Assembly: GCA_003450735.1 (NCBI GenBank)
Contig: DMEZ01000013.1
Coordinates: 1 to 61,410 of the forward strand
DNA: 61,410 bases
Direction of reading: 5' to 3'
Source: Elusimicrobiota bacterium
Lineage (GTDB): Bacteria; Elusimicrobiota; Elusimicrobia; UBA1565
Numbering within the stretch: position 1 is the stretch's first letter; the number at the start of each line of letters is the position of its first letter. Shown in pieces: positions 8,880 to 31,112 of the stretch. Under the pieces are notes generated by a model. The model did not search any database, had not been told where the DNA came from, and saw only the letters and a list, made by a program, of their open reading frames with translations. A program made the position numbers and the translations under genes.

Positions 8880-9104
8880 GCCGCCCTCACGGTAGCCCGA
8901 CCGACGAGGGGTCGGGCAGGTCCCAGGCCTTCCACAGGCGCAGGTAGTCCCTGCTCGAAAGCAAAACCAGCTCGGCCTTCGAGGCGGGGTCCAGCCAGCG
9001 AAGCAGCCGGATCATCCGCTCCTCCGAGAGCGCGACGCAGGCCGAGGTCTGGTCGCCGGCCCCGGACGATAGCGGAATCGAAAGCGCGCTTGTATAATGC
9101 GTGC

Positions 9105-11382: not shown

Positions 11383-11793
11383 GTGATCATCACCGAATTC
11401 CTCCAGAACCAGGTCCCTTTCCTCAAGGGGCTCACGGACGAGCAGGCCCGCGAGCTCGCCTCCGCCGTGGAGGAGCGCGCCTACAAGTCGGGCCAGACGA
11501 TCGTCTTCAAAGGGGCCACCGTGGACGGCCTGCACGTGATCGCCGCCGGCAAGGTCTCGGTCTGCGCCAAGGCGGAGAAGAACAGCGCAGGGGCCCCGGG
11601 CGCCGTGCTGGGCCCGGGCGACGTCTTCGGCGAGCGGTCCATCGTCGAGATCACGACGGCGAAGGCGGCCTTCAAGGGCGCGGCCCCCGAGACCCTCCTC
11701 TTCGTCATCCCGCAGCGCGCCTTCGTCCGGCTCCTCCAGAACGACACGGCCCTCAAGTTCCGAGTCTACGCCCTCCTCAAATCCTCCGGCTGA
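11383..11793 (+). CDS. Cyclic nucleotide-binding domain protein (single cNMP-binding domain)
   Basis: GTG start. The beta-roll motif FGERS (GDVFGERSIVE) is typical of CAP-family cNMP-binding domains. Confidence 0.6.
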   Translation: MIITEFLQNQVPFLKGLTDEQARELASAVEERAYKSGQTIVFKGATVDGLHVIAAGKVSVCAKAEKNSAGAPGAVLGPGDVFGERSIVEITTAKAAFKGAAPETLLFVIPQRAFVRLLQNDTALKFRVYALLKSSG

Positions 11794-16344: not shown

Positions 16345-18134
16345 CGGGCCACCTTCCTGAAGTCCTGGGGGGACGGTATCGTGCCGGAAGGCGTCAGCGC
16401 ATATTCGGGCAGCGGCTTCCACTCGTCGCTCTTCAGCCTGTAGACATAGCCTTCGCCGAGCCGCATCACGGCGGCGTTCTCGTCCTCGGCCAGGAACTCC
16501 GTGCCGGGAACCTCCGCGGCGAGAGCCTCCGGCCTGCGGGCGTCCTTGGAGAAGGGGTCATGGCGCAGGAACTCCGCGAGGAGCCAGGCCAGGGCGAGAA
16601 AGCTCGCGGGCTTGGTGATGACCTGCGGTTTCGCGGCATCCGCGTGGAAGGGCTTCCCGACCAATCTCACGGCGACGGGCACGGTCGCGATGGGGGGGAG
16701 CGGGATGTCCCGGACGTCCTTGGCCTGCATCTTCGTGCCGGTCAAGGCCGCGCCGTGCTCCGGCACGAACACCACGACCGCGCTGCGGCCCGATCTCTCG
16801 ACCGTCGAGAGGAAGGATTCCAGCTGTGCGATCATAGCCTCGAGCCTTCCCCTGTAGGAGGCGGCGTCGTCCGGGCCTCCGGAGACTCCCGACTTGTGCG
16901 TTCCCATGTGGAGATTGGCGGTATTGTAGTACAACGCCGCCCTCGGCGCCGACGACTCCTGGCGGGCTTTCCAGAATCGGCTCAGCGCCGCTTCGTCCTG
17001 GCTCATGGGGGAGTCGTCGAACATCCGATAGGCCGTCGGCAGGCCGTCGATGCCGATAGGCGGATCTCCCCGGCCGTACTTCTGCACGTTGACCGCGAAA
17101 TCGGCGTACTTGCCGTCGTTGTTGGTCATCGTGTAGGTCTTGAACCCGACGCTCCTCAGCCGGCCCAGGAGATAACAGCTGGCGGGGGCTTCGTCATAGA
17201 GCGCCTTGTGCCGCATCTGTCCGCAAGGGGCCTTCAGCAGGCGCAGCGACGCCGGGCCACTGTAGGAGCAGGCCGCGCTGAAATCGGTGAAGACGTAGTC
17301 GAACCTCGAGAAGAACGGCAGCAGGTCGGCCCCGGCATCCCTGATGTCCTTCCACGAGAGCGAGCAGATGTGCAGGAGGATCACGTCGAAAGGCCGCGCG
17401 CCATTCTCGGGAGGCGGGATCGCCACCACCCTGCGGCGTTCCTTCCGGTAGAAAGCCGCCGGCGACGCGCTGGGCCCCTCCGGCTCGGCCTCCTCCTCCG
17501 CCGGCTCCGGCTGCGGGGCGGGCGCCTCGGACCGGGCGAGGGCGGCTACCCTGTCGTAGAACGGGTCCTCGGGCAGCGGCTTCCTCGGCTCCAGGACCGG
17601 CCTCCTCGAGAGTTCCGCGGGAGCGTCCTCGCCCTCCAGGGCCAGGACGCCGTGCTTCGCCTGCAGACCCCACGCCGCGCCGAAGAGGACGTAGGCGCAG
17701 AGGGCGAGCGTCAGGGGCTTCCTGCGTGAGACGAGGAAGCATGCCGCGCAGAGCGCGAGCCCGGCCGCGAGCATCGGCAGGTTCAGGAACTGCCAGAGGA
17801 ACTCCGATAGGTAGCGCGCCGACGGGCGCTGCTTCGGGTCCGCCAGAAAATCAATGATCGTCATGGGAGGAGGGAGGAAGGATTCCCGCCACAGGAGCGC
17901 CAGCGCCGCGACGGCCGCCGACGCCCCGATGAGAGCGGTGAGGAGGCGGCTCTTCTTCGGGGGGGCGTGGAGCGCTAGATGCACGGCAAGCGCGAGCGCC
18001 CCCGTCAGGGCCGCATCGAGGGTGAGATAGCCGGCCAACGAGAGGACCGCCGCCGCGGCCAGGTACGCGTACCAGGCGGCCGCCAGCTCCTCGGAGAACC
18101 CACGGGGATCGAACGCCAGGCCGGCGATTCTCAC
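16341..18134 (-). CDS. bcsG: Cellulose biosynthesis protein BcsG-like phosphoethanolamine transferase (N-terminal TM domain + alkaline-phosphatase-like domain)
   Basis: N-terminal multi-TM region. Catalytic-domain motif ILLHICSLSWKDI (Cys/Ser ligands). PEHGAAL (Glu-His). The gene sits immediately downstream of bcsB. Confidence 0.55.
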   Translation of the reverse strand: MRIAGLAFDPRGFSEELAAAWYAYLAAAAVLSLAGYLTLDAALTGALALAVHLALHAPPKKSRLLTALIGASAAVAALALLWRESFLPPPMTIIDFLADPKQRPSARYLSEFLWQFLNLPMLAAGLALCAACFLVSRRKPLTLALCAYVLFGAAWGLQAKHGVLALEGEDAPAELSRRPVLEPRKPLPEDPFYDRVAALARSEAPAPQPEPAEEEAEPEGPSASPAAFYRKERRRVVAIPPPENGARPFDVILLHICSLSWKDIRDAGADLLPFFSRFDYVFTDFSAACSYSGPASLRLLKAPCGQMRHKALYDEAPASCYLLGRLRSVGFKTYTMTNNDGKYADFAVNVQKYGRGDPPIGIDGLPTAYRMFDDSPMSQDEAALSRFWKARQESSAPRAALYYNTANLHMGTHKSGVSGGPDDAASYRGRLEAMIAQLESFLSTVERSGRSAVVVFVPEHGAALTGTKMQAKDVRDIPLPPIATVPVAVRLVGKPFHADAAKPQVITKPASFLALAWLLAEFLRHDPFSKDARRPEALAAEVPGTEFLAEDENAAVMRLGEGYVYRLKSDEWKPLPEYALTPSGTIPSPQDFRKVAR

Positions 18135-18140
18135 GGCCCT

Positions 18141-20306
18141 CTACTTGCCCGTGATCCGCTTCTTCCTGTACTTGTTCAGGAAGTAGAACAGCGCCAGGCT
18201 GAGGGCGACGACGACGAGGGCCAGCAGGGCGTAATACAGCCACGGATGCGCGTACAGGTACGCATCCATCTTCGAGATCGGGCCGGCCTTCCCAGCGAAA
18301 TACTTCCTCCCGATGCTCACGGCGATCATGTTCTTCTCGGGGTCGTTGAGGTCGAGCAGGACGAGGTCGCCTTTCAGGTTCGCCTGCACGCTGTACTTCA
18401 TGAGGGCGAGGGAGAGGGCCCGGACTTCCTTGGGAGTGCGGGCGGTCAGCAGGACGACGCTGTGCCCTTCGCCGTAGGGTGATTGGAACTCCATCACCGC
18501 GCCGGTGTTCGTGCTCAGCCCGCTGACCTGCCGGCTGAACGCGAACTGCGATTCGTCCGCCCAGCCCTGCACGACGGGGTAGGGGAACGACATCTCCTTG
18601 GTCAGCGCGAGGGGCGCCTTCTCGCGAATCCCGGCGGGCAGGCTGTCGATGTCGCCGATGATCATGAGCTCGCCGTCGTATCTCTTGGGCGGCTGGGTGA
18701 TGAACTGGATCTCCAGGAGCGGGTGGCCGTTCTTCTGGGTGATCGAGCCCAGGAGGTTCAGCGCGGCCTCGATGCCCTCCCGGCCCGTGTTCGCCAGGTA
18801 GACCCTGGCGCCGTGCCCGTCGGGCCAGCGGGTGATGGGGAACCCGTTGAGCATGAAGAGCTCCAGGCGCGGCATGTCCACGTAGTGCGGCATGGGCGGG
18901 AAGCGGATCGTGGAGACGTCCATGACGGTCAGGAACAGGTTCTGGGTCTGGAAATACTCGCAGTTCTTGCCGATGGAAGGCGTCAGGACGGGCTCCAGCC
19001 GCAGGACATTGCTCCCCGGCTTGAAGAGGTAGGTGGGGATGTCCAGCATGTAGCCTTCGACGAGGCCGCCCTTCTCGTCGTTGAGGTGGATCCCGCGCAG
19101 GAGCTGGCCGTTCAGAGACAGGTTCACGACCGAGTCGGAGCGCCCGGCGGCGCCGTAGGAGTAGCTCAGCGACAGCTTGGCATAGAGGTTCTGCTTGATG
19201 AGGAAATCCGGGGGCAGGCGGAAGCTCAGCTCCGCCATGCTGGAGTTGATGCCCTTGAAGGTGCGGGTGGGGAAGTTCAGGGACTTGAAGGTGTAGGTCT
19301 TGTCCGCCTTGATGACCTCCTTGCCGCCGTAGAGCGGGATGTCCGGCATCTTGATCCCCGTCACGGTCATCTCGTCCATCTCCGGGAACGGCGCGGACAT
19401 GATGGCGAAGGTCTCGGCGGCGAGCTTCAGGTGGTCCTTGTTCAGGCCCGATACGACGAGCAGGGCATGGTAGGGGTCGCTGAGGCCCTCCCGCACCTGC
19501 CGGACGGGCAACGGCATGATCTTCAGGAACGGCCCCTTGACCCCCGCTTTGGCGTCGTACCCCGCCGCCTCCAGGACCCTGCCCGCGAAATCCGCGTCCC
19601 CGATGAGGATGTTGTCGTAGCCGGGCACGATCTCCCGCGACACGGCGAAGACGACTTCCCGATAATCGAACCTCATGGCGACGCCGGAGGCGATGATCCC
19701 GGCGATGGAGATGGTTTCCGCGGAGCTGTCGGGCATGACGATGACGACCTCGCCGCGGGGGGTCAGCTTGGGGTCGAAGAGGAAATTCGTGACCGCGGAC
19801 AGCCTCAGGGGGACCCGTTCGAGGGCATACTCGATCTCGAGGACCGCGTCGTCGTCGCCCAGCTTGAGCGTGGTCCAAAGCTCGGGCTGGCACGGGAATT
19901 CGCAGCCCATGGTGTAATGCTGGTGAGCGATGAAACTCAGGTCGTTGTAGCCCGGCTTGAACAGCTTCGCTGGCAGGTCCACCTTCATCGCCCCTTCGGG
20001 GGCCAGCGGGTTCAGGTTCCTCTGCGCGACCGCCTCCCCGTTGAACCTCACGATCAGGCGCGAGTTGGCGGCCAGGAGGGCGGTGGAGTTGACGAAGCCG
20101 AAGGAAAGCGACGCCTTCTTGACCTTCCAGCGCTCCGGGACAGGCAGGGACACCCCGTATTCGGCGGCCGTGCATTTGAGGTCGTAGCGCGTGGCCGAAC
20201 TGACCTTGTAGAGCGGGATCCGGATGGTCTCGGAGTGCGCCGCCTCGAGGCCTGCCGACGAGAGCAGGGCGCACGCCAGCATCGCGGAGGCGAAGGGGCG
20301 TCTCAT
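18141..20306 (-). CDS. bcsB: Cellulose synthase subunit BcsB-like (periplasmic, C-terminal TM anchor)
   Basis: Signal peptide MRRPFASAMLACALLSSAGLEA. Large periplasmic protein with a single C-terminal TM helix (YYALLALVVVALSLALFYFL), the topology expected of BcsB. Located in the bcsA operon. Confidence 0.6.
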   Translation of the reverse strand: MRRPFASAMLACALLSSAGLEAAHSETIRIPLYKVSSATRYDLKCTAAEYGVSLPVPERWKVKKASLSFGFVNSTALLAANSRLIVRFNGEAVAQRNLNPLAPEGAMKVDLPAKLFKPGYNDLSFIAHQHYTMGCEFPCQPELWTTLKLGDDDAVLEIEYALERVPLRLSAVTNFLFDPKLTPRGEVVIVMPDSSAETISIAGIIASGVAMRFDYREVVFAVSREIVPGYDNILIGDADFAGRVLEAAGYDAKAGVKGPFLKIMPLPVRQVREGLSDPYHALLVVSGLNKDHLKLAAETFAIMSAPFPEMDEMTVTGIKMPDIPLYGGKEVIKADKTYTFKSLNFPTRTFKGINSSMAELSFRLPPDFLIKQNLYAKLSLSYSYGAAGRSDSVVNLSLNGQLLRGIHLNDEKGGLVEGYMLDIPTYLFKPGSNVLRLEPVLTPSIGKNCEYFQTQNLFLTVMDVSTIRFPPMPHYVDMPRLELFMLNGFPITRWPDGHGARVYLANTGREGIEAALNLLGSITQKNGHPLLEIQFITQPPKRYDGELMIIGDIDSLPAGIREKAPLALTKEMSFPYPVVQGWADESQFAFSRQVSGLSTNTGAVMEFQSPYGEGHSVVLLTARTPKEVRALSLALMKYSVQANLKGDLVLLDLNDPEKNMIAVSIGRKYFAGKAGPISKMDAYLYAHPWLYYALLALVVVALSLALFYFLNKYRKKRITGK

Positions 20307-20322
20307 GGAGCGCGTGATTCTA

Positions 20323-21282
20323 TCAAAAGTAATTGTAATAGCCCATCCATAGATTCTCGAAGAACCCGCACTGCAGGTCGTTGAGGAGGCCCGCCCGGAC
20401 CTGTTCCGCGATCTCGTGCTCCGCATGGCATGCCCCCGCGCCGGCGTGGCCGCCTCCGCCGTACCTCTTCATGATGCTACCGATGTCCAGGGGGCAGGTC
20501 CTGTCGAGGACGGATTTTCCCGCCGCGAAGAACGCCCGGCCGCTCTTCCCGGTCGAGGAGACGTGCATGGACACGTTGCACTCGGGGAACAGGGCGTAAG
20601 TCATGAACTTGTTTCCCGGGACGATCCGCTCCTCCTGCCTCATGTCGGTGAGGACGAGGTTGGAGTGCACCGACGCGCATCTCAGGATCTGGCCCTTGTA
20701 CTCGTCGATGCACGCGAAATAGAGCTCCAGCCTCTCCTCCACGTCCGGGATGCTCAGGAGCTCCCATACGGTGCGGCGCTTCGCCTCGTCCATCAGCTCG
20801 ACGATGAGCTCGTCGTGGGACGCACGGAACCTCTTGAACTGCTCCAGGCCCGTCCTCGTGTCGATCAGGTAGCTCAGGAGGGTCCAGCCCGTCGGATACA
20901 GGATCTCCTCGCTCGCGATCCGGGCGCTGAAGCCCTTGTCGACCGCGTCGAGGATGTCGTCGTGGATGCCCGCGAACCGCTCCGCTCCGTAATGGTTGAA
21001 GATCACCCTCGCCGTGGAGGGCGCCCGGGTGTCGACCTTCAGATTGTGCTTGTCGACCGCCGGCTTGTGCGCGGAGGGATAGTGGTCGAAGGCCAGGTGG
21101 GCGTCGTCCTGGTACGGGAGCCCCGCCGTGATGTCGCCGGCCGTGACCTTGAACTTCCCGCTCTCGACGTCCTTCGGGTGGACGAAGGCGACGCTCTCGA
21201 GGAGGCCCAGCTCCTTGAGGAGCATGCCGCAGACCAGCCCGTCGAAATCGCTCTTGGTGACGAGCCGGTATCTTCCGCCCAA
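20323..21282 (-). CDS. DHH/DHHA1-family phosphoesterase-like protein (NrnA-like), with the DHH motif degenerate to DHY
   Basis: Motif I DFDG. FDHY sits in the place of DHH. DHHA1 signature GGGGHAGAGA. Inserted between bcsA and bcsB. Confidence 0.45.
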   Translation of the reverse strand: MGGRYRLVTKSDFDGLVCGMLLKELGLLESVAFVHPKDVESGKFKVTAGDITAGLPYQDDAHLAFDHYPSAHKPAVDKHNLKVDTRAPSTARVIFNHYGAERFAGIHDDILDAVDKGFSARIASEEILYPTGWTLLSYLIDTRTGLEQFKRFRASHDELIVELMDEAKRRTVWELLSIPDVEERLELYFACIDEYKGQILRCASVHSNLVLTDMRQEERIVPGNKFMTYALFPECNVSMHVSSTGKSGRAFFAAGKSVLDRTCPLDIGSIMKRYGGGGHAGAGACHAEHEIAEQVRAGLLNDLQCGFFENLWMGYYNYF

Positions 21283-21283
21283 G

Positions 21284-23557
21284 CTAGGCCTCCGCCCTCG
21301 CCCAGAGGCGGTCGACGTAGCCCGCGAGGCGGTTCGAGTGGAGCTTGACGTGGTCCATCGAGGGGACGAGGATGAACTTGAGCACCGCGACGTAGAACAC
21401 CCGCAAGCCCATGGCGCTCGACTTGAGGAGGAAGAGCAGGATCCACACGGGGTTGGCCGGCTTGGTCTTCTGCTCCCAGAAATCCGCCCACCGCTGGCTG
21501 TCGCCGAAGACGAACTCGACGGCCTCCATGCGCTGCTTCTCGTCGCTCAGGATGAACTCGCAGCCGCAGGCCCAGGTTGTCCCCCTGCGGACCTGCCGCT
21601 GGACACGCGCCTCGATCCTGAATCTCTTGCCGTGGCTGTTCCGGGTCTCGAGGATGAGGTGCTCGAGGGGCGCCAGCTCGTCGGCCAGCTCGAAGGAGAG
21701 CCCGACGCCCGACATGGAGATGTCGTCCATCTGCGCTTCCAGCGCCTTGCCCAGCCTGGGCAGGGTGAGATGCGCCGTGCCTTTCGCCCACATCCGGTGG
21801 TGCCGGCGCACCTGCTTGCGCTCGAAGAACGCCCCGAACGACGAGAGCGCCAGCAGGAGGTTCACCAAGCACCACACGAAGGTGATCGTCGTGATGTCCC
21901 GGTAGATCGGGTACGTGTACCACTTGATCGCCGCGGCCGGGACGGCGACGATGAGCACCCCGGTCAGCAGGAGGAAGGGCAGGGCGAACCCGCTCAGGAA
22001 GTCGCTCTCCAGGCTCTTCCCCTTCGGCGTCACCTTGAAGGACGGCTTCCTCGGGTTCAGGAAGACGGACAGGACCACGGGGATCAGGAACAAAGACTGG
22101 ATGCCCTCGAAGAACTCCGAGAAGAAGGGCCAGCGGAACCGCCCGTAGAGGAACCCCGTCAAAACCATGGACCCCAGCACGTGCGGGAGCGCGTAGGCCA
22201 AAACCTGGGGCACGGAGGCGAAGAAGACCCTCAAATCCAGGAGCAGGAACGCCGCCGGCGCGACGTAGAAGATGACCCTCGACGCCCCGAAGAACCAGTA
22301 GAAGCAGCTGTTGAAGTAGCAGAGCTTCTGGTAGAGCTTCAGGCCTTTCGCGAACAGCGGGTTGTTCAGGACGAAGATCTGGGTCATCCCCTGGGCCCAG
22401 CGGCTCTTCTGCACGATCAGGTCGTCGAACGTCTCCGGGGAAAGGCCGCAGACCATGGGCCGCGGGATGTAGACGCTCTTATAGCCCCGCTGGTGCAGGG
22501 CCACGGCGGTCTCGCAGTCCTCGGTGATGGTCTCGCCGCAGACGCCCCCGATCTCCTCGAGGCAGCTCCGCCTCAGCAGCGCCGCCGAGCCGCAGAAATA
22601 GCTCGAGTTCCACATGTCGAGGCCCGGGTGGATGCCGCGGTAGAACATGTCGTTCTCGCTGGGCGCGTCCTTGAAGATCGCCATGTTCTTCTCGATCGGG
22701 TTCGGGTTGATGAAGAAGTGCGGCGTCTGCACGAACGCGACCTTCTCGTCTTTCAGGAACCAGCCCGCGGTGTTCTTCAGGATGTCCCTCACGGGGACGT
22801 GGTCGCAGTCCAGGATGAGCACCAGGTCGGCGCTCGTGTGCCCCAGCGCGTGGCTGAGGTTCCCGGCCTTGGCCCTGAGATTCTTCTCGCGCGTGATGTA
22901 GCCGATGCCGTGCCTCTCGGCCAGCCCCTTCAGGGCGTAGTACCTCTCCCAGGCCTGGGGCCCGGTCTTCGGGTCGCACCGCTTCGCGACGGTGGCCCCG
23001 TCGTCGAGGATGTGGATCTTCAGCTTGTTTTTTGGGTAATCGATGTTCAGGGCGGCCAGGGCCGTGAGCTTCACGATGCCGATCGGCTCGCTGTAGGTCG
23101 GGATGAGCACGTCCACGGAAGGGTAGCTGGACGTGTCCGCGGGCAGCGGCATGATCTTGTTCTCGAGCGGCCAGATGCTCGTGAAGATGCCGAGCAGGTG
23201 GACGCTGATGGCGTACATCTCGGCGAGGTAGAGGGCCATCATGGCCAGGGTGTCCGCCGGCCCCGTATAGACCAGGGTCTCGGTCGTCCTCCAGACCACG
23301 TAGCGGAGGGTCAGGAAGGAGGCCAGGACGATGAAGAGGATCCTCAGGGGGGGCTTCTTGACCCTGTCGATGGGCTTGAGGAGGAAAAGGACGGCGAGGG
23401 AGCCCCAGCCGACGACGTACTGGCTGCTGAGCTCCAGGTGCAGCTGCGCGAGATGGTAGAAGAGATAGAGCGCGGCGGCGAGGAACGCGTACGAGAAGCC
23501 CGGGATGACGCCGGGATGCTTCAGCAGGAAGTCCTTCAACGAGCCGGCGGACGTCAA
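21284..23557 (-). CDS. bcsA: Cellulose synthase catalytic subunit BcsA (GT2) with C-terminal PilZ domain
   Basis: GT2 motifs D,D,D (ILDDG, LDCDH), TED, QKSRWAQG (QxxRW). PilZ motifs RRHHR and DISMSGVGL. TTG start at 23557 overlaps the cyclase stop (TTGA). The N-terminal 70 aa of the longer ORF look non-coding. Confidence 0.9.
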   Translation of the reverse strand: MTSAGSLKDFLLKHPGVIPGFSYAFLAAALYLFYHLAQLHLELSSQYVVGWGSLAVLFLLKPIDRVKKPPLRILFIVLASFLTLRYVVWRTTETLVYTGPADTLAMMALYLAEMYAISVHLLGIFTSIWPLENKIMPLPADTSSYPSVDVLIPTYSEPIGIVKLTALAALNIDYPKNKLKIHILDDGATVAKRCDPKTGPQAWERYYALKGLAERHGIGYITREKNLRAKAGNLSHALGHTSADLVLILDCDHVPVRDILKNTAGWFLKDEKVAFVQTPHFFINPNPIEKNMAIFKDAPSENDMFYRGIHPGLDMWNSSYFCGSAALLRRSCLEEIGGVCGETITEDCETAVALHQRGYKSVYIPRPMVCGLSPETFDDLIVQKSRWAQGMTQIFVLNNPLFAKGLKLYQKLCYFNSCFYWFFGASRVIFYVAPAAFLLLDLRVFFASVPQVLAYALPHVLGSMVLTGFLYGRFRWPFFSEFFEGIQSLFLIPVVLSVFLNPRKPSFKVTPKGKSLESDFLSGFALPFLLLTGVLIVAVPAAAIKWYTYPIYRDITTITFVWCLVNLLLALSSFGAFFERKQVRRHHRMWAKGTAHLTLPRLGKALEAQMDDISMSGVGLSFELADELAPLEHLILETRNSHGKRFRIEARVQRQVRRGTTWACGCEFILSDEKQRMEAVEFVFGDSQRWADFWEQKTKPANPVWILLFLLKSSAMGLRVFYVAVLKFILVPSMDHVKLHSNRLAGYVDRLWARAEA

Positions 23558-24369
23558 TTCGTATCGCCCGTGATCGTTACGCTGTGCTCGGTCGTCCGCC
23601 TTTCCTCGTCGGAGCCTGAGCGGCCCAGCTTCCAGTAGGCCGCGGCCGCGAGGAGGATCGCGCCGGCCAGGGCCAGGAGGACCTTGATGCACAGCGGGCA
23701 CTTCTCTTGGACATCCTGGACCGGCTTCCTGGCGGAGAGGTCGCGCTGGATCTCGGTCTTGTTCCAATAGCCCTTGTAGAGCTTCATGGGCTCTTTCTTG
23801 CCCTTCAGCTCGACTTCCTTGGCGAAGCCGCAGTAGATCTCGGCGCGGTCCGAGAGCGCGTTGTAGGCCTCCTCCGAGAGGAGGATCTCGCCGGGGTTCG
23901 CCTGCGCCTCGATCCTGGACGAGACGTTCACGACGTCGCCGAAGATGTCGTTCTTCTCCACGATGCCGAGGCCCACGTGGATGCCGATGCGCATGAGGAT
24001 CGGGATCGTGAGCTTCTTCTCCAGGTTGAACGCGTCGATGCCCTTCTGGATCTCCGCGGCGGCCCGCAGGGCGCTCTGGGCGTTCTCGTAGTAGGACATC
24101 GTGCCGTCGCCCATCGTCTTGACGAGGATCCCGTCGTGCTTCTTGATGACCGGGAAAACGATGTCGAAGTGCTGTTTTATCAGCGTCCGGTGGGCGATGT
24201 CCCCGTGCGTCTCGGCGATGGCCGTGGAGCCCTTGAGATCGGTGAACATGACCGTGATGGTCTTCTGGAACCGGTCCTTGAACAGCTTGTCGAGGCGGGC
24301 GCGCTCCTCGATGATCTTGTCTACGTTCAAATCGTCTTCAGGATCTTCTTTCCGCTGTTCATCTGCCAT
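23554..24369 (-). CDS. Class III adenylate/guanylate cyclase (CHD) with a C-terminal transmembrane anchor
   Basis: Metal-binding Asps in FTDLKGST and KTMGDG. GIHVGLGIV and NVSSRIE motifs. The Lys before TMGDG suggests ATP specificity. C-terminal TM helix VLLALAGAILLAAAAYW. Confidence 0.75.
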   Translation of the reverse strand: MADEQRKEDPEDDLNVDKIIEERARLDKLFKDRFQKTITVMFTDLKGSTAIAETHGDIAHRTLIKQHFDIVFPVIKKHDGILVKTMGDGTMSYYENAQSALRAAAEIQKGIDAFNLEKKLTIPILMRIGIHVGLGIVEKNDIFGDVVNVSSRIEAQANPGEILLSEEAYNALSDRAEIYCGFAKEVELKGKKEPMKLYKGYWNKTEIQRDLSARKPVQDVQEKCPLCIKVLLALAGAILLAAAAYWKLGRSGSDEERRTTEHSVTITGDTN

Positions 24370-24399
24370 GCGTCAGGCCTCGCGCGACATGTATAACAT

Positions 24400-24429
24400 T
24401 TACCAATTAGCATCGCGATATTACCAATT
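24400..24429. promoter_or_regulatory. Direct repeat TTACCAATT x2, spaced 21 bp, in the promoter region of the cyclase-bcsA operon
   Basis: Repeats at 24400-24408 and 24421-24429. They lie 31 and 52 bp upstream of the cyclase ATG (24369, minus strand), in a locally AT-rich 84-bp intergenic region. Confidence 0.35.
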
Positions 24430-24453
24430 TTCCGACTCGCTGACCCTAGGCCT

Positions 24454-26235
24454 CTATCTTCTCAGGGTGAGAGTGAGGGAAGCGCCTTCTCTGGCGAGCG
24501 AGGCCGGACTTGCGGCCGAGAAGGGCCCGGAGGAGGCCGTGATCTCGTAGTCGCCCAGGAACGCGCGCGCTCGATACTCCCCGCGCCAGTCCGCGGTCCC
24601 GCCGGTCTGCGTGTTCCAATCCTTCAGGAGGAGCTCCTCGAGCGCGGCGGCCGCCGGCTTCTTCGACCAGTCCCTCCGGTAGAGCGCCATGACCGGTTCG
24701 GAATGGACGCCCTCCCAGAAGCCCCAGAGGGTGATGCCCTCCACCGCGGGGTGGCTGAACATCGCGGTCATGAAATCGCGCAGGTAATCGGCCTGGAGCT
24801 CCTCGTCGGCCACCTCGACGTCGAGCTCAGTGGCCTGCAGGGGCTTGCCGAGCCGTCCGAACCGGTCGAGGACCCTCAGCAGCCGCTCGGGCGGCGTAAG
24901 GTCGTAGCGGAAATGACACTGCAGGCCGACGCCGTCGAGCGGGGCCCCATCCGAAAGGATCCGGCGGATGAGCGCTTCGTAGCGGTCCTGCTGCTCGAGG
25001 TTCAGGCCGAAGCCGTCCAGGACGTCGTAGTCGTTCACGAAGAGCCTGGCTTCGGGGTCGGCCTTCCGCGCGAGGCGGAACCATTCGAGAGCCTCCCCGC
25101 GGCCCAGGAGGCCGAGGACCTCCGGGTGGCCGATGGGCTCGTTGAGCACGTCCCACTCCGCGGCCTTCCCTCGGTAATAGGCCGCTTCCTCCGTGATGTG
25201 CCCGCGGATGGTTTTCCGCAGTCGGTCCGGGTCGTTCTTCAGGTTCTCCATGCCCTCGGGCATGTGCTCCCAGCCGGGCCAGACCAGGGTATGGCCCCGG
25301 AGCTTGATGCCCCCGGCCTTCAGCCAGGCGGCCGTCTTGTCGGCCCAGGCTCTCTGCTCGCCTTTCCAGAAGGGCCACTTGAGTCCGTTCTCTATGGTGG
25401 CGGAGTTGAAGAGCCGCAGGAAGGTCTCCTTGTAGCGGCGCCGGTCGTCGTCCCGGCCCCCGGAGAAGAGGGTCGCCGAGTTGATCGCGCTGCCGAAGAA
25501 GAACGCATGCCGCTTCAGTCTGACCTGGACGGCCGCGCCCGGCGCCGGCTTCCCGTCCGGGTCCACGACCTTGACCGTGATGCCGGCTTTCCGGATGCGC
25601 TCGATGCGCTCTTCGGCGGCTTTCCTCCACGGGGCCCCGGGCTCCCGGCCTTCATAGAACCCGGCGGCGGGGACCCGGACAGGGCTCCGGCCGAGGCCGA
25701 CGAGCTCGAAGCCGGCGAGCTCCACCGTCTGCGCGCCGAATCCGAGCCTGAAAGCGATCTGCGCTCCCCCGGCCGGATAATCCCCGGCCGACCTGAAAGG
25801 TACGTCGATGCGCCGCCAGCGCAGGCCGGCCTCCGCCGGGAGAACGATGGATTTCCGGTACTCGCCGCCGACCTGCTCGAAGACGAAGTCCACCCGGGCC
25901 TTCGCGGGCGAGAACAGCGGCCTCCGGACGTAGAACCTGGCCGCCAGAAGGTCCCCGGCGCGCACCGGCGCGGCCGTCGGCGCTCTCAACTGCACCTCGT
26001 AAGGCTGAGGCGGCCTGGCCAGGGTGCGCAGGCGCAGCGCCTGCCCGCGGATCGAGACAGCGCCGCGGCCGCCGGCAAGAAAGGAGGCAGGGTCGCTCAG
26101 ATCGGAGGGCCTCACCAGCGGGGTCCCCGGCGGGAGCGGCGGCGCGGCGGGAAGCCTCAAGACGTAGAAGCCGTATGCCGAGTATGCCGCGGCGGCGGCC
26201 AGGGCGGCGCAGGAGGCGGCCAGGAGGCGCTTCAC
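24454..26235 (-). CDS. Glycoside hydrolase family 10 (endo-beta-1,4-xylanase-like) with an N-terminal beta-sandwich (CBM4/9-like) region, secreted
   Basis: GH10 catalytic motifs WDVLNEP (acid/base) and QATELDV (nucleophile). In-frame GTG starts at 26265 or 26235 (MKRLLAASCAALAAAAA signal peptide). Confidence 0.7.
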   Translation of the reverse strand: MKRLLAASCAALAAAAAYSAYGFYVLRLPAAPPLPPGTPLVRPSDLSDPASFLAGGRGAVSIRGQALRLRTLARPPQPYEVQLRAPTAAPVRAGDLLAARFYVRRPLFSPAKARVDFVFEQVGGEYRKSIVLPAEAGLRWRRIDVPFRSAGDYPAGGAQIAFRLGFGAQTVELAGFELVGLGRSPVRVPAAGFYEGREPGAPWRKAAEERIERIRKAGITVKVVDPDGKPAPGAAVQVRLKRHAFFFGSAINSATLFSGGRDDDRRRYKETFLRLFNSATIENGLKWPFWKGEQRAWADKTAAWLKAGGIKLRGHTLVWPGWEHMPEGMENLKNDPDRLRKTIRGHITEEAAYYRGKAAEWDVLNEPIGHPEVLGLLGRGEALEWFRLARKADPEARLFVNDYDVLDGFGLNLEQQDRYEALIRRILSDGAPLDGVGLQCHFRYDLTPPERLLRVLDRFGRLGKPLQATELDVEVADEELQADYLRDFMTAMFSHPAVEGITLWGFWEGVHSEPVMALYRRDWSKKPAAAALEELLLKDWNTQTGGTADWRGEYRARAFLGDYEITASSGPFSAASPASLAREGASLTLTLRR

Positions 26236-26304
26236 GTTCGCTCCAGATGGATGATACGCATCCACCGGATGCGATGCAAGCCGGGAAGCGGCCCCGCGGG
26301 GAGC

Positions 26305-26706
26305 CTAGGCCGGCTTGAGCAGACGGGCTACGGTCTGTTCGAGCAGGGCCGGCTCGATGGGCTTGTCGATGAAGGCCTCGGGCTCCTTGCAGCCGTAGTA
26401 CTCCCCCAGGTCCTCGGCCGAGAACTTCAGCCCGCTGCGCCGGTTCACGGATGTCAGCATGATGACCGGGATCGAGGCCAGGTCCTTGTCGGTCCGCAGC
26501 GCCGCGAACACCCCGAACCCGTCCATCTTGGGCATCTGGACGTCCAGGATGACCAACCGAGGCCTGCTCTGGCGGATCAGCTGGAGCGCCTTCTCTCCGT
26601 CGGGAGCGTCGAGCAGTTCGCAGGGGAAGCCTTCCAGGACGCCCCGCACGAAAGAGATGCAGTCCGGCTCGTCGTCGGCGATCAGGATCTTGGGCTGTTC
26701 GTTCAA
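26305..26706 (-). CDS. Single-domain response regulator (CheY-like receiver)
   Basis: KILIADDEPD, ILDVQMPKMDG, LTSVNR...KPIEP. TTG start with a GAGGAGG SD 7 nt upstream. Paralog of 11797..12213. Confidence 0.8.
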   Translation of the reverse strand: MNEQPKILIADDEPDCISFVRGVLEGFPCELLDAPDGEKALQLIRQSRPRLVILDVQMPKMDGFGVFAALRTDKDLASIPVIMLTSVNRRSGLKFSAEDLGEYYGCKEPEAFIDKPIEPALLEQTVARLLKPA

Positions 26707-26737
26707 GGTCGTTCCTCCTCGGCGTCTCTTCGGCGGG

Positions 26738-27166
26738 TCAGGCCAGCACCTTCTTGACCGTCTCGATCAGGACCTGGGGGTCCACGGGCTTCTCGACGTA
26801 GGCGTCCGGCTTGGCGTCGACGCCGACGACCTTCTTCTTCGCCGCGGCATGCGAGTCGTCGCAGAGGTAGGACTTCATGTCCACGCCCGTGACCTTCGAG
26901 GCGCCGCTCACCACGATCACGGGGACCTGCCGGAAGCCCTCCTGCCGCTTGAATTGGTTGAAGAACGCCAAGCCGCTCTGCCCCGGCATCATGAGGTCGA
27001 GGAAGACGATATCGGGCCTGCGCCCGGAGGCCTTCTCCAGGGCGTCCTTGCCGTTCTTCGCCGAGAAGGTCTCGAAGCCGTGGTCCTCCAGGATCTGCGA
27101 GATGAAATCGATGTTGTCCTGCTCATCGTCCACGACCAGCGCGACCTTGCCGTTGAATTCTGCCAT
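26738..27166 (-). CDS. Single-domain response regulator (CheY-like receiver)
   Basis: VALVVDDEQD, FLDLMMPGQSG, VIVVSGASK. AGGAGG SD upstream of the ATG. Confidence 0.8.
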   Translation of the reverse strand: MAEFNGKVALVVDDEQDNIDFISQILEDHGFETFSAKNGKDALEKASGRRPDIVFLDLMMPGQSGLAFFNQFKRQEGFRQVPVIVVSGASKVTGVDMKSYLCDDSHAAAKKKVVGVDAKPDAYVEKPVDPQVLIETVKKVLA

Positions 27167-27205
27167 GGTCCTCGATCCTCCTGGAATCGGCGGGCTTCGA
27201 AAGCC

Positions 27206-28735
27206 CTACCCGCCCTGCCGGCCTGCGTCCATCGCGGCCTGTCTGCTCCTGGGGAGCCGGAGGCTGAAGGTGGTGCCCCGGCCGAGGGCGGTGTCGACCT
27301 CGATGCGTCCCCCGTGCTCTTGAACGATCTTGCGGGTCACGGAAAGGCCGAGCCCCGTGCCCTTGGAGCCCTTGGTGCTGAAGAAGGCCTTGAAGAGGGA
27401 CCCGCGCGCGGCCTCGTCCATGCCGCAGCCCTGGTCGGCCACGTCCACCGCCACCTCGCCGCAGTCGAGCTCGCGCACGCGCACGTCCACGCCGGCCCCT
27501 TCGCGCCCCTCGCAGGCGTCCAAGGCGTTGGTGACCAGGTTCAGGACGCACCGGCAGATCCCCTGGCCGTCGAGTTCGACCGGGTTCGGCCCGGGGGTCG
27601 GCTCGAAGCGCAGGGGCACGCCCCGCTCGTGCGCCTTGGGAGCCATCAGGTCCACGACGCCCTTCACGACCTCGTTGAGGTCGCACGCCTGGTATTCGGG
27701 CCGGCGCTCCTTCGCGTAGGTCAGCATGTCCTGGACGAGGTTCTTCAGGAGCTCGAGGTTCCTGTCGATCATCCCGATGCTGCGGCCCGGGATGTCCGAC
27801 CCGGCCTTCTTGACCGCGGACTTGAGCAGGTACATCCCGCCGCTCAGCCCGTTGAGCATGTTCTTGATGCAGTGCGCCACCCCGGCTACCGCCTCGCCGA
27901 TGGCGGCCAGGCGCGCGGCCTTGAGGGATTCGCGGATGAGCTGCGCGTTGTGGATGGCGACCGCGATCTGGCCGGCTACGGCCTCCGCGAGGGCGAGGTC
28001 GTGGCGGCTGAAGCCCTCGCCCCCGTTCTTGTTGACCAGCTCGAGGGCGCCGATGCACTGGGAATCGACGATCAGCGGCACGCAGAGGATCGAATGGGTG
28101 AGGAAGCCGCTCTCTTCGTCCGCCTTCTTGGAGAAGCGCGGGTCCTGGAGGGGGTTGTTGACGATGACCGCCAGCCGCTTGGACACGCAGTCGCCCACGA
28201 TGCCCTCGCCTTCCGCGAGGCGGAAGCTCGCCAGCTTGGAGGCGCCGCCCTCCGTCACCACGAACTGGAACACGAGCTCGCGCGCCCCCTTGTCCCAGAG
28301 CGCGATGGTCGCCCCTCCGACGTCCAGCATCTCGCCGGCGATCCGGATGACCGTGGGCAGGAGCTTATCGAGGTCCTGGGACGCGCTGTGGATCAGGCGC
28401 GAAGTGTCGACGAGGCCCCGGAGCTCGGCCAGCAGGAAGCGGTGGGCGTGGTCGTTGCGCCTGCGGCCGATCGCCTGTCCCGTCCTGGATGAGAGCTTAG
28501 CGACGATCAGCCCGCCGCAGCCGCAGGCGACCTCGGTGTCGGCCCGGAACGCCGCCAGGTCGTATTCCCGACCGCAGGTCGGGCAGGACATCCGCTTCCT
28601 TTCGCTGACGATCCGGCGGTAGGCGAGCCACGGGAGGATCCGGATCCTTTCGCCGCAGGAGCACGCGATCTCGGTCTCGTTGAGAGACCGGTCCGCCTCG
28701 TAACGATGACGGCACTTAGGGCATTCGGCCAGCAT
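27206..28735 (-). CDS. Sensor histidine kinase: duplicated N-terminal zinc-ribbon, GAF, HisKA, HATPase_c (cytoplasmic, no TM seen)
   Basis: Two CPxC(x16-18)CxCG repeats (CPKCRH...CSCG and CPTCGR...CGCG). GAF-like region. H-box GVAHCIKNML. HATPase LNLVTNALDA, DQGCGM, GTGLGLSV. Confidence 0.75.
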   Translation of the reverse strand: MLAECPKCRHRYEADRSLNETEIACSCGERIRILPWLAYRRIVSERKRMSCPTCGREYDLAAFRADTEVACGCGGLIVAKLSSRTGQAIGRRRNDHAHRFLLAELRGLVDTSRLIHSASQDLDKLLPTVIRIAGEMLDVGGATIALWDKGARELVFQFVVTEGGASKLASFRLAEGEGIVGDCVSKRLAVIVNNPLQDPRFSKKADEESGFLTHSILCVPLIVDSQCIGALELVNKNGGEGFSRHDLALAEAVAGQIAVAIHNAQLIRESLKAARLAAIGEAVAGVAHCIKNMLNGLSGGMYLLKSAVKKAGSDIPGRSIGMIDRNLELLKNLVQDMLTYAKERRPEYQACDLNEVVKGVVDLMAPKAHERGVPLRFEPTPGPNPVELDGQGICRCVLNLVTNALDACEGREGAGVDVRVRELDCGEVAVDVADQGCGMDEAARGSLFKAFFSTKGSKGTGLGLSVTRKIVQEHGGRIEVDTALGRGTTFSLRLPRSRQAAMDAGRQGG

Positions 28736-29105
28736 GCGTCCCCCTGCTGCGCAGGCGTGCGGCGGGATTAGGGCCTCGGCGCACGGTAACACGCCCCGAG
28801 GACTGAAGACAAATGAATTTTTTTCATCGTCGTATTAGCGCATCTAATATCCGGAGCCTCCGGCCCGGCCGAGACTGGACGTCCATGCCGCATTATACCA
28901 CCCAGGCCCCGGCGGCGGCCAGGACGGCGACGCCCAGCGCCGCGTCCGCGCCGCGACGCCGCCGAAGAGGACCTGCAGCGTCACCTCGAAGGACGTCCAG
29001 CCGAGCCAGAGCGCTCCCGCCACCGGCAGGGCGTTCCTGGCCAGCACCAGCCACGGCCCCAGGTTTCCATGAAGGACTCGGAACGGTTTCTTGGGAGATG
29101 CTCCA

Positions 29106-31112
29106 TCACGTCCCAAGCCGGACGAGCGCCCGCGCCCGCGCATCGGTCGCCGACAGGAAGCTCGAGTGGCTCCACGACAGGTCCCGGCCCGAGGCCGGCG
29201 CGCCGGTCTCCTTGTCGAACTGCTCGGCCAGCTCGCCGGAGGGGGGGGTCGCGCGCTTGAGCGTCCTCAGCAGGTCGTCTCCGCGCAGGACGAGGCCCCG
29301 CAGCAGGCTCTCCCGCTCGGCCAGGGCCTCATCGCGCAGCGCTCCTCCTCCCGCCCGCCTCAGCGCCCTCGAGAGGAACTCCCGGTTGAGCGGGGTCACG
29401 GGGATGGACTCCTTTTTCGACAGCAGTTCCGCGGCCCGGTAGTGGAGCTCCGCGTAGGCCATCGTGGCGAACACCCACGGGTTCCCGCCAAAGTAGGTGT
29501 CCCCGTTGTAGCGCCCCATCGCCACGCCCTCGTCTTCGGCGCGCTTCTTGTTGAACGGGTATAGGGACTCGAAGAGGTCTTCCAGCTTCACCGCGGTGGA
29601 CAGCACGCGCTCGTCGAGGGGGGACGTCCGCCCCTCCGTCAGGCCCCCATGCAGGGCCGCGAGCAGCACCGCGACGTCCAGCCCCTCGCCGGGCTTCTCC
29701 TTCACCGTCCCGTCCCAGTAGGTCCGGGGCCCCAGCGCGAAGGCATAGTAGCCCTTGTCCTCCAGCCAGAGCTTGTCCAGCTCCGCGTACAGCCGCCTCG
29801 AGGCCTCGACACGGCCGCCCGCCCTCAGGGCCGCGGCCTGCACCGCGCGGGTATAGTAGTCGTGCCCGCGGTACTCCTCCCACAGGTCGAAGCCCTCGCG
29901 CTCCGTGTCCGAGGCGATGAAGTCCAGGTCGGTCTTCGCCGCCTCGGGGTCCACGCGCAGAAGGGCCAGCGCCCGCAGGGCCGGCCCGTCGTACTGCGGC
30001 CTCGACCAGCGCAAAAAGTCTCGGGAGCCGTCGGCATTGAAGCGCGGCTCGCCCAGGTCGGAGGCTTGCAGGGAGCGGGAGAACGCGGCGAAATCCTTCA
30101 CCTGCTGGTCGTGCCCCAGCGCCGCCAGCTCGGACATGACCAAGGCCGAGTCCCGCACCCAGTGGAAGAAATAGTCCGGCTCCGGGGGCTTGCCCGCCGG
30201 GGCCGCGACCACGGAGCCCGGCTTCGGGGTGATGCTCGCCCGGATCTTCCCGCCTTCGATCTTCAGGCCGGCCTTGCGGGCGGGGTCGGCGTGGACCTCA
30301 TCGAACTCTTTCTCCACGACGGTCCCCGTCGAAGACACGTTGCGCAGGAGGCGCTCGAGCGAGAGCTTCCTCTGAGCGGCGATCCAGGTTTCGAGCCCGA
30401 AATGGGCGAAGATCCGGTCGAAGGCCTCCCGCTCCTTCTCAGGATGGAACTGCACCGCCAGGATGGAGCCCTTCTCCATCGCCTCGACGACGCCGTCGTC
30501 CGCCGCGGCGGCGACCGTGAAGCCCTCCGCCGGCCGCTTGACCGCCTGATGGTGGTACGAGTTCACCCGGATGCGGTCCTTTCCCAGAAGCGCCCGCAGC
30601 AGGCTCCCTTTCTTCAGGTCGACTTCGTGGTAGCAAGGCTTGGACTTCCCGTCCTCGCGGACGCGGTGGACGATCTTGCCGACCTGGGAGGGGAGGTCCT
30701 GGTAGAGGCTGCCCCCGGCGTAGACGTTGAGCAGCTGGTGGCCCTTGCAGATGCCGAGGATGGGGAGCTTCCGCTCCAGGCTCCTCTTGACCGCGGCGAA
30801 CTCGTAGAGGTCGAAGCCCTTGTCGACCGTCTCGAGCTTCGGGTGCGGCTCCTCGCCGTAGAGGTCGGGCGAGACGTCGTCGCCTCCCGGCACCAGCAGG
30901 CCGTCGAGGGAGTCGAGGCGCGCCTCGGTCTCGCTGGAGGCCAGCGCCTGGAAGAGCGGGACGATCTCGGCCCCGTGGGCCTTCAGCGCCTTGGAGTAGT
31001 AGGGGAGCTTGTCCTCCGCGGCCAGCGCTTGCTCCTCAGTGTAAAGCAGTCCGATCCTGGGAGGGGCGGCCTCCGCGAGCGCGGCCGCGGCGAGGAGGGC
31101 GAGCCAGGCCAT
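29106..31112 (-). CDS. Secreted fusion protein: class I glutamine amidotransferase-like (peptidase C26) domain + GH15 glucoamylase-like (alpha/alpha)6 domain
   Basis: Signal peptide MAWLALLAAAALAEA. GATase1 triad motifs ILGICKGHQLLN and VQFHPE. GH15 motifs HWVRDSALV and GFDLWEE. Confidence 0.65.
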   Translation of the reverse strand: MAWLALLAAAALAEAAPPRIGLLYTEEQALAAEDKLPYYSKALKAHGAEIVPLFQALASSETEARLDSLDGLLVPGGDDVSPDLYGEEPHPKLETVDKGFDLYEFAAVKRSLERKLPILGICKGHQLLNVYAGGSLYQDLPSQVGKIVHRVREDGKSKPCYHEVDLKKGSLLRALLGKDRIRVNSYHHQAVKRPAEGFTVAAAADDGVVEAMEKGSILAVQFHPEKEREAFDRIFAHFGLETWIAAQRKLSLERLLRNVSSTGTVVEKEFDEVHADPARKAGLKIEGGKIRASITPKPGSVVAAPAGKPPEPDYFFHWVRDSALVMSELAALGHDQQVKDFAAFSRSLQASDLGEPRFNADGSRDFLRWSRPQYDGPALRALALLRVDPEAAKTDLDFIASDTEREGFDLWEEYRGHDYYTRAVQAAALRAGGRVEASRRLYAELDKLWLEDKGYYAFALGPRTYWDGTVKEKPGEGLDVAVLLAALHGGLTEGRTSPLDERVLSTAVKLEDLFESLYPFNKKRAEDEGVAMGRYNGDTYFGGNPWVFATMAYAELHYRAAELLSKKESIPVTPLNREFLSRALRRAGGGALRDEALAERESLLRGLVLRGDDLLRTLKRATPPSGELAEQFDKETGAPASGRDLSWSHSSFLSATDARARALVRLGT

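Follow-up and report, generated by a model that had tools for sequence, protein, structure and literature searches.

A probable dedicated adenylate cyclase in the cellulose secretion modules of diverse bacteria

Bacterial cellulose synthesis is a textbook output of c-di-GMP (cyclic dimeric guanosine monophosphate) signalling, and the accessory subunits of the Bcs (bacterial cellulose synthesis) machinery have been catalogued for a decade. This work concerns a 61,410-nucleotide (nt) stretch of DNA from an Elusimicrobiota bacterium (GenBank assembly GCA_003450735.1, contig DMEZ01000013.1), hereafter the window, in which the gene for the cellulose synthase catalytic subunit, bcsA, is directly preceded by a gene for a class III adenylate cyclase with a C-terminal membrane anchor. 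Membrane-anchored cyclases of this family are encoded beside bcsA and/or bcsB in nearly all loci in which they were found, and their catalytic residues are nearly always intact. The protein is probably the dedicated adenylate cyclase of the cellulose secretion module; the family, including kinase-fused and degenerate forms, is apparently undescribed. The two genes, and the parts of the cyclase that matter for the argument, are as follows.

23554..24369, minus strand: tail-anchored class III adenylate cyclase, 271 amino acids (aa) (Pfam PF00211, PDB profile search, AlphaFold2, Foldseek).
24268..24324, minus strand: N-terminal helix of the cyclase, residues 16–34, directly before the core (AlphaFold2; conserved in alignment A1, see below).
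23770..24267, minus strand: cyclase homology domain (CHD), residues 35–200, with D44, K84, D88, D141, N148 and R152.
23623..23694, minus strand: single C-terminal transmembrane helix, residues 226–249 (AlphaFold2 and hydropathy).
23581..23607, minus strand: tail motif EERRTTEHS, residues 255–263, in a disordered tail of low predicted local distance difference test (pLDDT) score; predicted to be periplasmic.
23554..23557, minus strand: ATTGA junction in which the TGA stop of the cyclase gene overlaps a TTG start of bcsA (read from the sequence).
21284..23557, minus strand: bcsA, encoding the 757-aa catalytic subunit of cellulose synthase, which ends in a PilZ domain (TIGR03030; Pfam GT2 families and PilZ).

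The assignment as a cyclase draws on sequence profiles, fold and individual residues. The open reading frame (ORF) matches the Pfam family Guanylate_cyc (PF00211) with E = 9.3e-23 and 81.2 bits, against a cutoff of 21.9, and a profile search of the PDB has Ma1120, an adenylyl cyclase of Mycobacterium avium, as its top match (E = 2.4e-31). Alignment A1 comprises 30 diverse homologs of 46–65% identity; the AlphaFold2 model based on it has a mean pLDDT of 84 and consists of helix 16–34, a core of residues 35–200, the 24-residue helix 226–249 and the disordered tail. Foldseek searches with this model again return Ma1120 as best match (template modelling (TM) score 0.92–0.94, root-mean-square deviation about 1.5 Å), followed by Rv1900c and CyaB. 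Invariant in A1 are the metal-binding aspartates D44 and D88, K84, D141, N148, R152 and a KGK phosphate loop; in a larger set of homologs, the six catalytic and substrate-binding residues together with the phosphate-binding Lys are intact in 117 of 120. Profile, fold, the two metal Asp residues and the transition-state Asn–Arg pair all place the protein in class III. K84 and D141 align to K101 and D157 of Ma1120, where mutagenesis showed that both residues set the preference for ATP over GTP (PMC4215837). With Lys84/Asp141 as the ATP-specifying pair, the protein should be an adenylate rather than a guanylate cyclase. The original prediction, a class III cyclase whose substrate was to be read from an alignment with characterised domains, is borne out in its class by profile, fold and intact residues, and the alignment now points to the adenylate type. 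To judge by its residues, the protein is a complete, ATP-type class III adenylate cyclase and is predicted to be active.

The cyclase matches none of the known Bcs accessory families (BcsE, F, G, Q, R, O, S and others); PF00211 is its sole Pfam hit, and nothing in NCBIfam comes near a cutoff. The plasmid collection PLSDB holds no ortholog, only distant CHD proteins. Copies that are 100% identical occur on groundwater metagenome contigs, to which the window as a whole has matches, and proteins identical to those of the window bear the label Elusimicrobia.

How far this gene arrangement extends was addressed by scanning one genome per GTDB species with a profile of the cyclase family, which gave 80 loci; four further loci came from look-ups of exact proteins. 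The loci from the scan were searched with the Bcs proteins of the window, the cyclases were sorted by architecture, and a locus was counted as bcs-linked if bcsA or bcsB lay within the fetched flank. Cyclases with a membrane anchor were found at 41 loci, 40 of which have bcsA and/or bcsB in the flank. The control loci, 12 with soluble paralogs and 27 with more distant CHD proteins, have bcs genes in 0 of 39 cases (Fisher p = 7.6e-22). The anchored cyclases occur in the following arrangements.

19 loci (of 41): cyclase directly upstream of bcsA, on the same strand.
12 loci (of 41): cyclase convergent with the 3' end of bcsB.
9 loci (of 41): cyclase elsewhere inside the cluster, e.g. bcsA-bcsB-x-cyc-bcsG in Nitrospinota.
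1 locus (of 41): no bcsA or bcsB in the flank (Kuenenia, L010).

In the Kuenenia exception, the contig ends 4.5 kb downstream of the cyclase; on another Kuenenia contig, the cyclase gene is convergent with two giant tetratricopeptide repeat (TPR) genes, a glycoside hydrolase family 8 (GH8) gene and bcsB. The carriers amount to some forty species, and at least five phyla are represented: Elusimicrobia; Nitrospirota, with Ca. Magnetomonas plexicatena as a complete genome; Nitrospinota; anammox Planctomycetes; and numerous Beta- and Gammaproteobacteria, which take in the cultured Pseudoalteromonas denitrificans DSM 6059 and Ca. Methylobacter oryzae KRF1. The cyclase is thus recurrently adjacent to bcsA or bcsB in relatives, a point that the original prediction had named as one to check. 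It is conserved at the same level as BcsA, and pairwise divergences of the two proteins correlate with r = 0.86 (BcsA versus BcsB, r = 0.72); this correlation speaks for joint inheritance and does not imply contact. When all ORFs of the loci were clustered, the only recurrent products were the cyclase, BcsA and BcsB, BcsC-like TPR proteins (31 loci) and BcsG (15 loci).

To judge by their motifs, the cellulose synthases concerned still depend on c-di-GMP. BcsA of the window scores 804.6 bits against TIGR03030, the UDP-forming cellulose synthase catalytic subunit (cutoff 699.1), carries QKSRW, RRHHR and DISMSG as its versions of the QxxRW motif and the PilZ motifs RxxxR and DxSxxG, and is encoded alongside BcsB, so that a bcsA-bcsB core is present. 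All linked BcsA proteins keep QxxRW and both PilZ motifs. A loss of PilZ at loci with kinase-fused cyclases (see below), as a missing Pfam annotation in L099 would have it, was rejected, the motifs being intact. Since the PilZ motifs are retained, the cyclase would supplement control by c-di-GMP, not replace it.

At the junction itself, the minus strand reads ...ACG AAT TGA, and the TTG at 23555–23557 overlaps the end of the cyclase gene by 4 nt. Before the first membrane helix of BcsA there are only two in-frame starts, the TTG at 23557 (spacing −4) and a second TTG at 23537–23539, which lies 18 nt further downstream and leaves a gap of 14 nt (+14); both are in use among public gene callers. 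The bcsA frame remains open as far as 23767, and a longer bcsA that begins within the cyclase gene was therefore considered. Upstream of 23557, the GC content at third codon positions (GC3) reaches 0.90 in the cyclase frame but 0.47 in that of bcsA; within the gene bodies it stands at 0.91 (cyclase) and 0.96 (bcsA). The low value in the bcsA frame makes a start upstream of 23557 impossible. A GGAGG-like Shine-Dalgarno sequence, as seen before neighbouring genes, is absent before either TTG. This layout fits putative translational coupling of the two genes by termination–reinitiation, although it is no proof of it. Among 16 relatives with both genes on the same strand, the distance from the cyclase stop to the likely bcsA start is −20 to +9 nt in 8, 28–42 nt in 3 and 82–108 nt in 4; for the remaining one, the sole candidate start is a TTG at +21 nt. 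L094, which is outside these 16, has a 4-nt overlap identical to that of the window. In four annotated relatives (L087, L091, L093 and L094), the cyclase gene is preceded by a divergent gene and a gap of 260–395 nt, and is consequently the first gene of the bcs operon. The overlap of the TGA with a TTG start that had been read at this position is thus present, bcsA begins either there or 14 nt after the cyclase stop, and a start far downstream was not found. Coupling, which had been proposed on these grounds, would rest on overlap or close abutment in the window; it is not universal, as the cyclase precedes bcsA on the same strand in 19 of the 41 loci.

A further line of evidence lies in the parts outside the catalytic core. 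The N-terminal helix, on the analogy of the helical domain of mycobacterial Cya, is probably a dimerising segment; in Cya, a helical segment before the class III core is described as promoting the active dimer (PMC5699072). At the other end, the most hydrophobic stretch of 19 residues has a mean hydropathy of 2.77 over 119 homologs, and about 28 residues follow the helix. Hydropathy and model together bear out the tail anchor that had been predicted for this CHD. The residues beyond the helix hold the nearly invariant motif [ED]-E-x-R-[ST]-x-x-H-[ST], in which R258 is shared by 118 of 120 homologs and H262 by the majority. As the catalytic domain would be cytoplasmic and there is a single membrane helix, this tail should be periplasmic.

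This relatively uniform picture is varied by two kinds of derived members and by a set of sister proteins. In the first kind, the full family match including helix and tail forms the C-terminus of proteins of 430–650 aa, as revealed by HMMER searches of 1.84 billion representative sequences; the N-terminal part is a Hanks-type Ser/Thr kinase. Kinase fusions account for 10 of the 41 loci, about a quarter; they are also bcs-linked, and most are convergent with bcsB. Fusions were seen in L013, L016, L021, L025, L030, L035, L036, L037, L039, L045, L098 and L099 (proteins P0241–P0258). The soluble sister paralogs have the architecture CHD-FHA-FHA, or a CHD with an extension of unknown type, and are never bcs-linked; they are found in L024, L041, L044, L046–L049 and L051–L055, sometimes in tandem arrays. 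Their genes adjoin those for T2SSE/MshEN ATPases, CRP-like proteins or separate kinases. From the architectures and neighbours of these paralogs it follows that the cyclase clade is generally tied to Ser/Thr phospho-signalling.

The second kind has lost its active site. Trichlorobacter ammonificans (Geobacterales; complete genome OW150024.1) encodes a 260-aa homolog directly upstream of bcsA (L096:6903-7685). It has no Pfam match, yet hhalign aligns it to the family profile over 228 columns with a probability of 99.4%. The hydrophobic helix and an Arg/His tail of the R-x-x-H-like type are kept, while other residues stand in place of the metal Asp, of both members of the Lys/Asp pair and of the Asn. 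After bcsA, this genome continues with a gene resembling that of the phosphodiesterase PggH (see below), bcsB, a GH8 gene, a TPR/SPOR protein gene, bcsG and a diacylglycerol kinase gene. The metagenomic member P0020 is likewise degenerate. To judge by the sequences, then, the family is normally an enzyme whose place in the Bcs module can outlive catalysis. That the position is kept after catalytic loss argues for a physical role of anchor and tail, and the cyclase probably also has a non-enzymatic role.

In the window, the cyclase gene belongs to a long run of genes on the minus strand, listed here in the order of transcription; the final entry lies outside this run.

26305..28735, minus strand: GAF histidine kinase and two receiver proteins.
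24454..26235, minus strand: glycoside hydrolase of family GH10 (Pfam Glyco_hydro_10, E = 2.2e-44), 84 nt 5' of the cyclase gene and on the same strand.
20323..21282, minus strand: degenerate PggH-like DHH/DHHA1 protein, 319 aa, between bcsA and bcsB (phmmer).
18141..20306, minus strand: bcsB (Pfam BcsB, E = 4.7e-110).
16341..18134, minus strand: bcsG-like phosphoethanolamine transferase (TIGR03368, 391.9 bits, just below the cutoff of 410.2; PF11658).
15553..16344, minus strand: 263-aa homolog of the C-terminal domain of a BcsC-like TPR protein (BLASTP).
13955..15556, minus strand: GAF and HD-GYP protein, last gene of the same-strand run (Pfam GAF, HD_5).
11383..11793, plus strand: stand-alone cyclic nucleotide monophosphate (cNMP)-binding domain protein, 136 aa (Pfam cNMP_binding, E = 9.5e-13).

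Intergenic gaps measure 31–84 nt from the kinase gene to the cyclase gene, and at most about 40 nt from there to the HD-GYP gene. Over the whole window, Rfam has nothing at its gathering threshold, and in 23400..29200 nothing at E <= 1; a riboswitch or other RNA element upstream was rejected accordingly. A scan of 13500..29000 for promoters and terminators stayed at chance level.

The HD-GYP protein contains the HD and HHERMDGKGYP motifs and is likely to be a c-di-GMP phosphodiesterase. The 263-aa protein has no match in a Pfam search. It aligns to residues 603–835 of an 840-aa TPR protein in L094 (BLASTP E = 3e-37) and is built of two internal repeats; a classical BcsC barrel was rejected for want of similarity to BcsC of L087, and the protein could represent the outer-membrane domain of a non-classical BcsC, encoded on its own.

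Several further features of the surroundings may be recorded. The GH10 (xylanase-family) gene occupies the position where bcs clusters usually have BcsZ, a GH8 endoglucanase; in another Elusimicrobia genome (L008), the bcs cluster likewise includes a GH10 gene, the two proteins being 69% identical. The operon contains genes of c-di-GMP-degrading type (HD-GYP and PggH-like) and none with a GGDEF domain; a GGDEF gene is found 21 kb away at 45143..46393. Directly 5' of the cNMP-binding gene, and also on the plus strand, lies a gene of GH3 beta-glucosidase type (9090..11300). Convergent with the HD-GYP gene, a plus-strand gene (12366..13958) encodes a protein of 530 aa that has a GDPD glycerophosphodiester phosphodiesterase domain at its C-terminus and could be related to lipid by-products of phosphoethanolamine transfer of the BcsG type. 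On the minus strand at 29106..31112, a 668-aa fusion joins a Peptidase_C26/GATase domain to one of GH15 glucoamylase type, an unusual pairing.

If the cyclase is indeed the dedicated enzyme of the module, its mode of action might be envisaged as follows. The protein would dimerise through its N-terminal helix, by analogy with mycobacterial Cya, and reside in the inner membrane beside BcsA-BcsB, with the membrane helix and the periplasmic tail contacting the Bcs complex; the most likely partner would be BcsB. Cyclic adenosine monophosphate (cAMP) would then be made at the synthase, or in step with it, and would act through receptors encoded elsewhere. In the window, the GAF domain of the HD-GYP phosphodiesterase from the same operon is a candidate receptor, and would tie cAMP to the level of c-di-GMP that is sensed by the PilZ domain of BcsA. 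The fused Ser/Thr kinase of some lineages would provide an extra input or output. As to the flow of information, two directions are conceivable: the cyclase might feed into cellulose synthesis, or it might report on the assembly and activity of the synthase.

A number of observations weigh against such a dedicated role. Receptors were sought by phmmer at all loci with CRP, cNMP-binding, GAF, HD-GYP and GGDEF/EAL queries, and no near-universal signalling neighbour was found across the 41 loci (CRP-like proteins in 2, HD-GYP in 7, GGDEF in 6); no cAMP receptor is conserved beside the cyclase, for which reason the output route of cAMP is a guess. In 22 of the 41 loci, the cyclase is not co-transcribed with bcsA. 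The charges that flank the membrane helix are not decisive for its topology. Finally, the degenerate members in Trichlorobacter and P0020 mean that cAMP synthesis is dispensable in at least some systems.

These results also bear on the cross-talk between cNMP signalling and cellulose production that the original prediction had suggested, with the cNMP-binding protein at 11383..11793 as a second pointer. The domain of the latter is real; the protein has no counterpart near any ortholog of the cyclase, and was rejected as a conserved partner. The suggestion holds up in essence; as no receptor is conserved in the neighbourhood, cross-talk itself rests on gene linkage. The single hint of a route from cAMP to c-di-GMP is a recurrence: a GAF and HD-GYP protein of the same architecture is encoded in the betaproteobacterial locus L095 (16324-17979), adjacent to bcsA and divergent from it. 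On this route, the GAF domain of the window protein would be of the cNMP-binding kind.

The alternative that survives best, if unlikely on the whole, is that the cyclase serves the Bcs inner-membrane complex chiefly as a structural or regulatory component. Its helix and tail would then do the essential work, for instance in assembly, in stabilising BcsB or in gating BcsA, and nucleotide binding or cyclisation would be a secondary matter, much as with the degenerate GGDEF-like domain of BcsE in E. coli. The Trichlorobacter homolog is what this would lead one to expect, with position, helix and tail kept and the catalytic residues gone; so are the tail Arg, which is as conserved as the catalytic residues, and the missing local receptor. 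Degenerate members are rare, however, and purifying selection of the kind that has left 117 of 120 homologs intact is hard to explain without catalysis.

Another reading is a link at the level of expression alone. The cyclase would then act freely as a global source of cAMP, its gene lying in or beside the bcs operon so that cAMP, via a CRP-type regulator encoded elsewhere, follows the expression of cellulose genes up and down, with no contact to the synthase. In enterobacteria, control of biofilm genes by cAMP-CRP is well established, and both the lack of a linked receptor gene and the position of the cyclase as first gene of the bcs operon in four relatives would suit this idea. Yet adjacency is kept in the 12 loci where the cyclase is convergent with bcsB and so cannot share its transcript. 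A global source of cAMP would need neither a membrane anchor nor an invariant tail motif, and the soluble sister paralogs, which have neither a place in the module nor an anchor, are never bcs-linked. Such an explanation thus appears rather improbable.

Very little speaks for a different product, be it cyclic guanosine monophosphate (cGMP) or a pyrimidine cNMP of the type made by Pycsar cyclases. Weak PADLOC matches to PycC were obtained (45 bits), and Ma1120, the closest solved relative, shows, at alkaline pH, a residual activity as guanylyl cyclase (PMC4215837). Guanylate cyclases have Glu where Lys stands at the purine-specifying position (PMC4215837), whereas the Lys/Asp pair present here specifies adenine; the PycC scores are far below those against general CHD profiles and Ma1120. 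A Pycsar defence cyclase was likewise rejected: no Pycsar effector adjoins the gene, which is flanked by GH10 and bcsA, and across the loci the neighbours are all bcs genes. That the adjacency to bcsA is a local accident, or the overlap an artefact of ORF calling, is practically dismissed by the linkage statistics given above (40 of 41 against 0 of 39 loci), the spread over at least five phyla and three gene orders, and the exclusion of an upstream bcsA start by GC3.

The gene between bcsA and bcsB adds a further nucleotide-related protein to the operon. Its 319-aa product matches nothing in Pfam or NCBIfam; in phmmer, residues 4–303 match PggH (PDB 7d62) with E = 1.2e-84. PggH (VCA0593) of Vibrio cholerae is a pGpG-specific DHH/DHHA1 phosphodiesterase whose Mn ligands are Asp15, Asn55, His68, His69 and Asp121 (PMC8861645). 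The window protein shares with it D13, D15, D67 and the GGGH motif (GGGGH in full); of the five Mn ligands it has lost three, through N55G, H69Y and D121F, so that it is a PggH relative by homology and motif without the complete ligand set. Five bcs-embedded orthologs, including that of the window, agree in this: position 55 is Gly in 5 of 5, position 69 is Tyr, Phe or Ala, and position 121 is Phe, Leu or Val. GGGH is kept in 4 of the 5, with GGGY in L093. The degenerate pattern recurs in about 85 of the 120 closest homologs, while the 35 more distant ones are canonical. Many proteins of this clade of about 85 carry a C-terminal NLxxGY[FY]N tail. At all seven loci that were inspected (the window, L007, L008, L093, L094, L096 and L097), the PggH-like gene lies in or beside the bcs cluster. 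The clade thus differs from PggH in the replacement of three Mn ligands, the gained C-terminal motif and the bcs linkage. From its residues, the protein is probably a pseudo-enzyme and perhaps a nucleotide sensor. No literature was found on a degenerate PggH-like bcs gene.

A bolder extension of the dedicated cyclase is conceivable, though it should be regarded as doubtful. Here, the cyclase would be a physical subunit of BcsA-BcsB; its conserved periplasmic peptide would sense what state BcsB or the emerging glucan is in, and the cyclase would pass this on as cytoplasmic cAMP. In Elusimicrobia, Nitrospirota and relatives, it would be joined by the dead PggH homolog, as a sensor of pGpG or another nucleotide, and by the GAF and HD-GYP protein, to form a circuit of cAMP, c-di-GMP and pGpG that controls cellulose secretion; the kinase fusions would represent alternative wiring.

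If the dedicated role holds, cAMP signalling is built into many cellulose systems, with a second nucleotide cyclase beside bcsAB in at least five phyla, and the cyclase could act as an input, relay feedback from the secretion machine, or form a bridge to the turnover of c-di-GMP. Cross-talk between cAMP and c-di-GMP at the cellulose synthase would become testable, given a small protein, clear point mutants and culturable carriers (Pseudoalteromonas denitrificans DSM 6059, Methylobacter). An active cyclase subunit would also confound two-hybrid assays based on reconstitution of adenylate cyclase, which are standard for Bcs interactions. From the same operon, the degenerate PggH clade is a candidate for a new class of nucleotide receptor. 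The term 'adenyl' is absent from a review of Bcs systems (PMC8892547), and in a survey of bcs clusters from 2026, the only neighbours to be mentioned are of GGDEF/EAL type. Full-text literature searches for a cyclase in a bcs context gave only two-hybrid uses of adenylate cyclase, with an earlier mention not fully excluded.

Among known systems, the closest in sequence and fold are cyclases of the Ma1120/Rv1900c type (about 34% identity), which share the Lys/Asp pair, are of the homodimeric type and carry all catalytic residues in a single chain. Ma1120, a soluble protein, has no link to polysaccharide genes; the present family is bcs-linked and carries a helix before the core and, after it, a membrane helix with a conserved tail. 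In place of the transition-state Asn that most cyclases have, Ma1120 has Ala (PMC4215837), whereas the family keeps the Asn–Arg pair.

In function, the nearest parallels are found in cellulose systems of the E. coli type. BcsE (reviewed in PMC8892547), together with BcsF, is likewise a membrane-tethered, cytosolic nucleotide-signalling accessory that is attached to BcsAB. It contains a degenerate GGDEF-like domain, and GGDEF domains have the palm-type fold in common with class III cyclase domains. BcsE binds c-di-GMP, is catalytically inactive and is tethered via a separate small protein, BcsF; the present cyclase matches PF00211 alone, is expected to be active as an ATP cyclase and brings its own membrane helix. 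DgcC and PdeK of E. coli are described as local c-di-GMP enzymes that act at the cellulose synthase and not via the global pool (PMC7397504). They resemble the proposed arrangement in that a second-messenger enzyme works beside BcsA; their messenger, c-di-GMP, is the known ligand of PilZ, in contrast to cAMP, which has no known site on BcsA. Cya/Rv1625c and the mammalian membrane adenylyl cyclases, lastly, are also membrane-bound and have a helical segment before the class III core, but they are held by six N-terminal transmembrane helices, where the Bcs-linked cyclase has a single C-terminal one.

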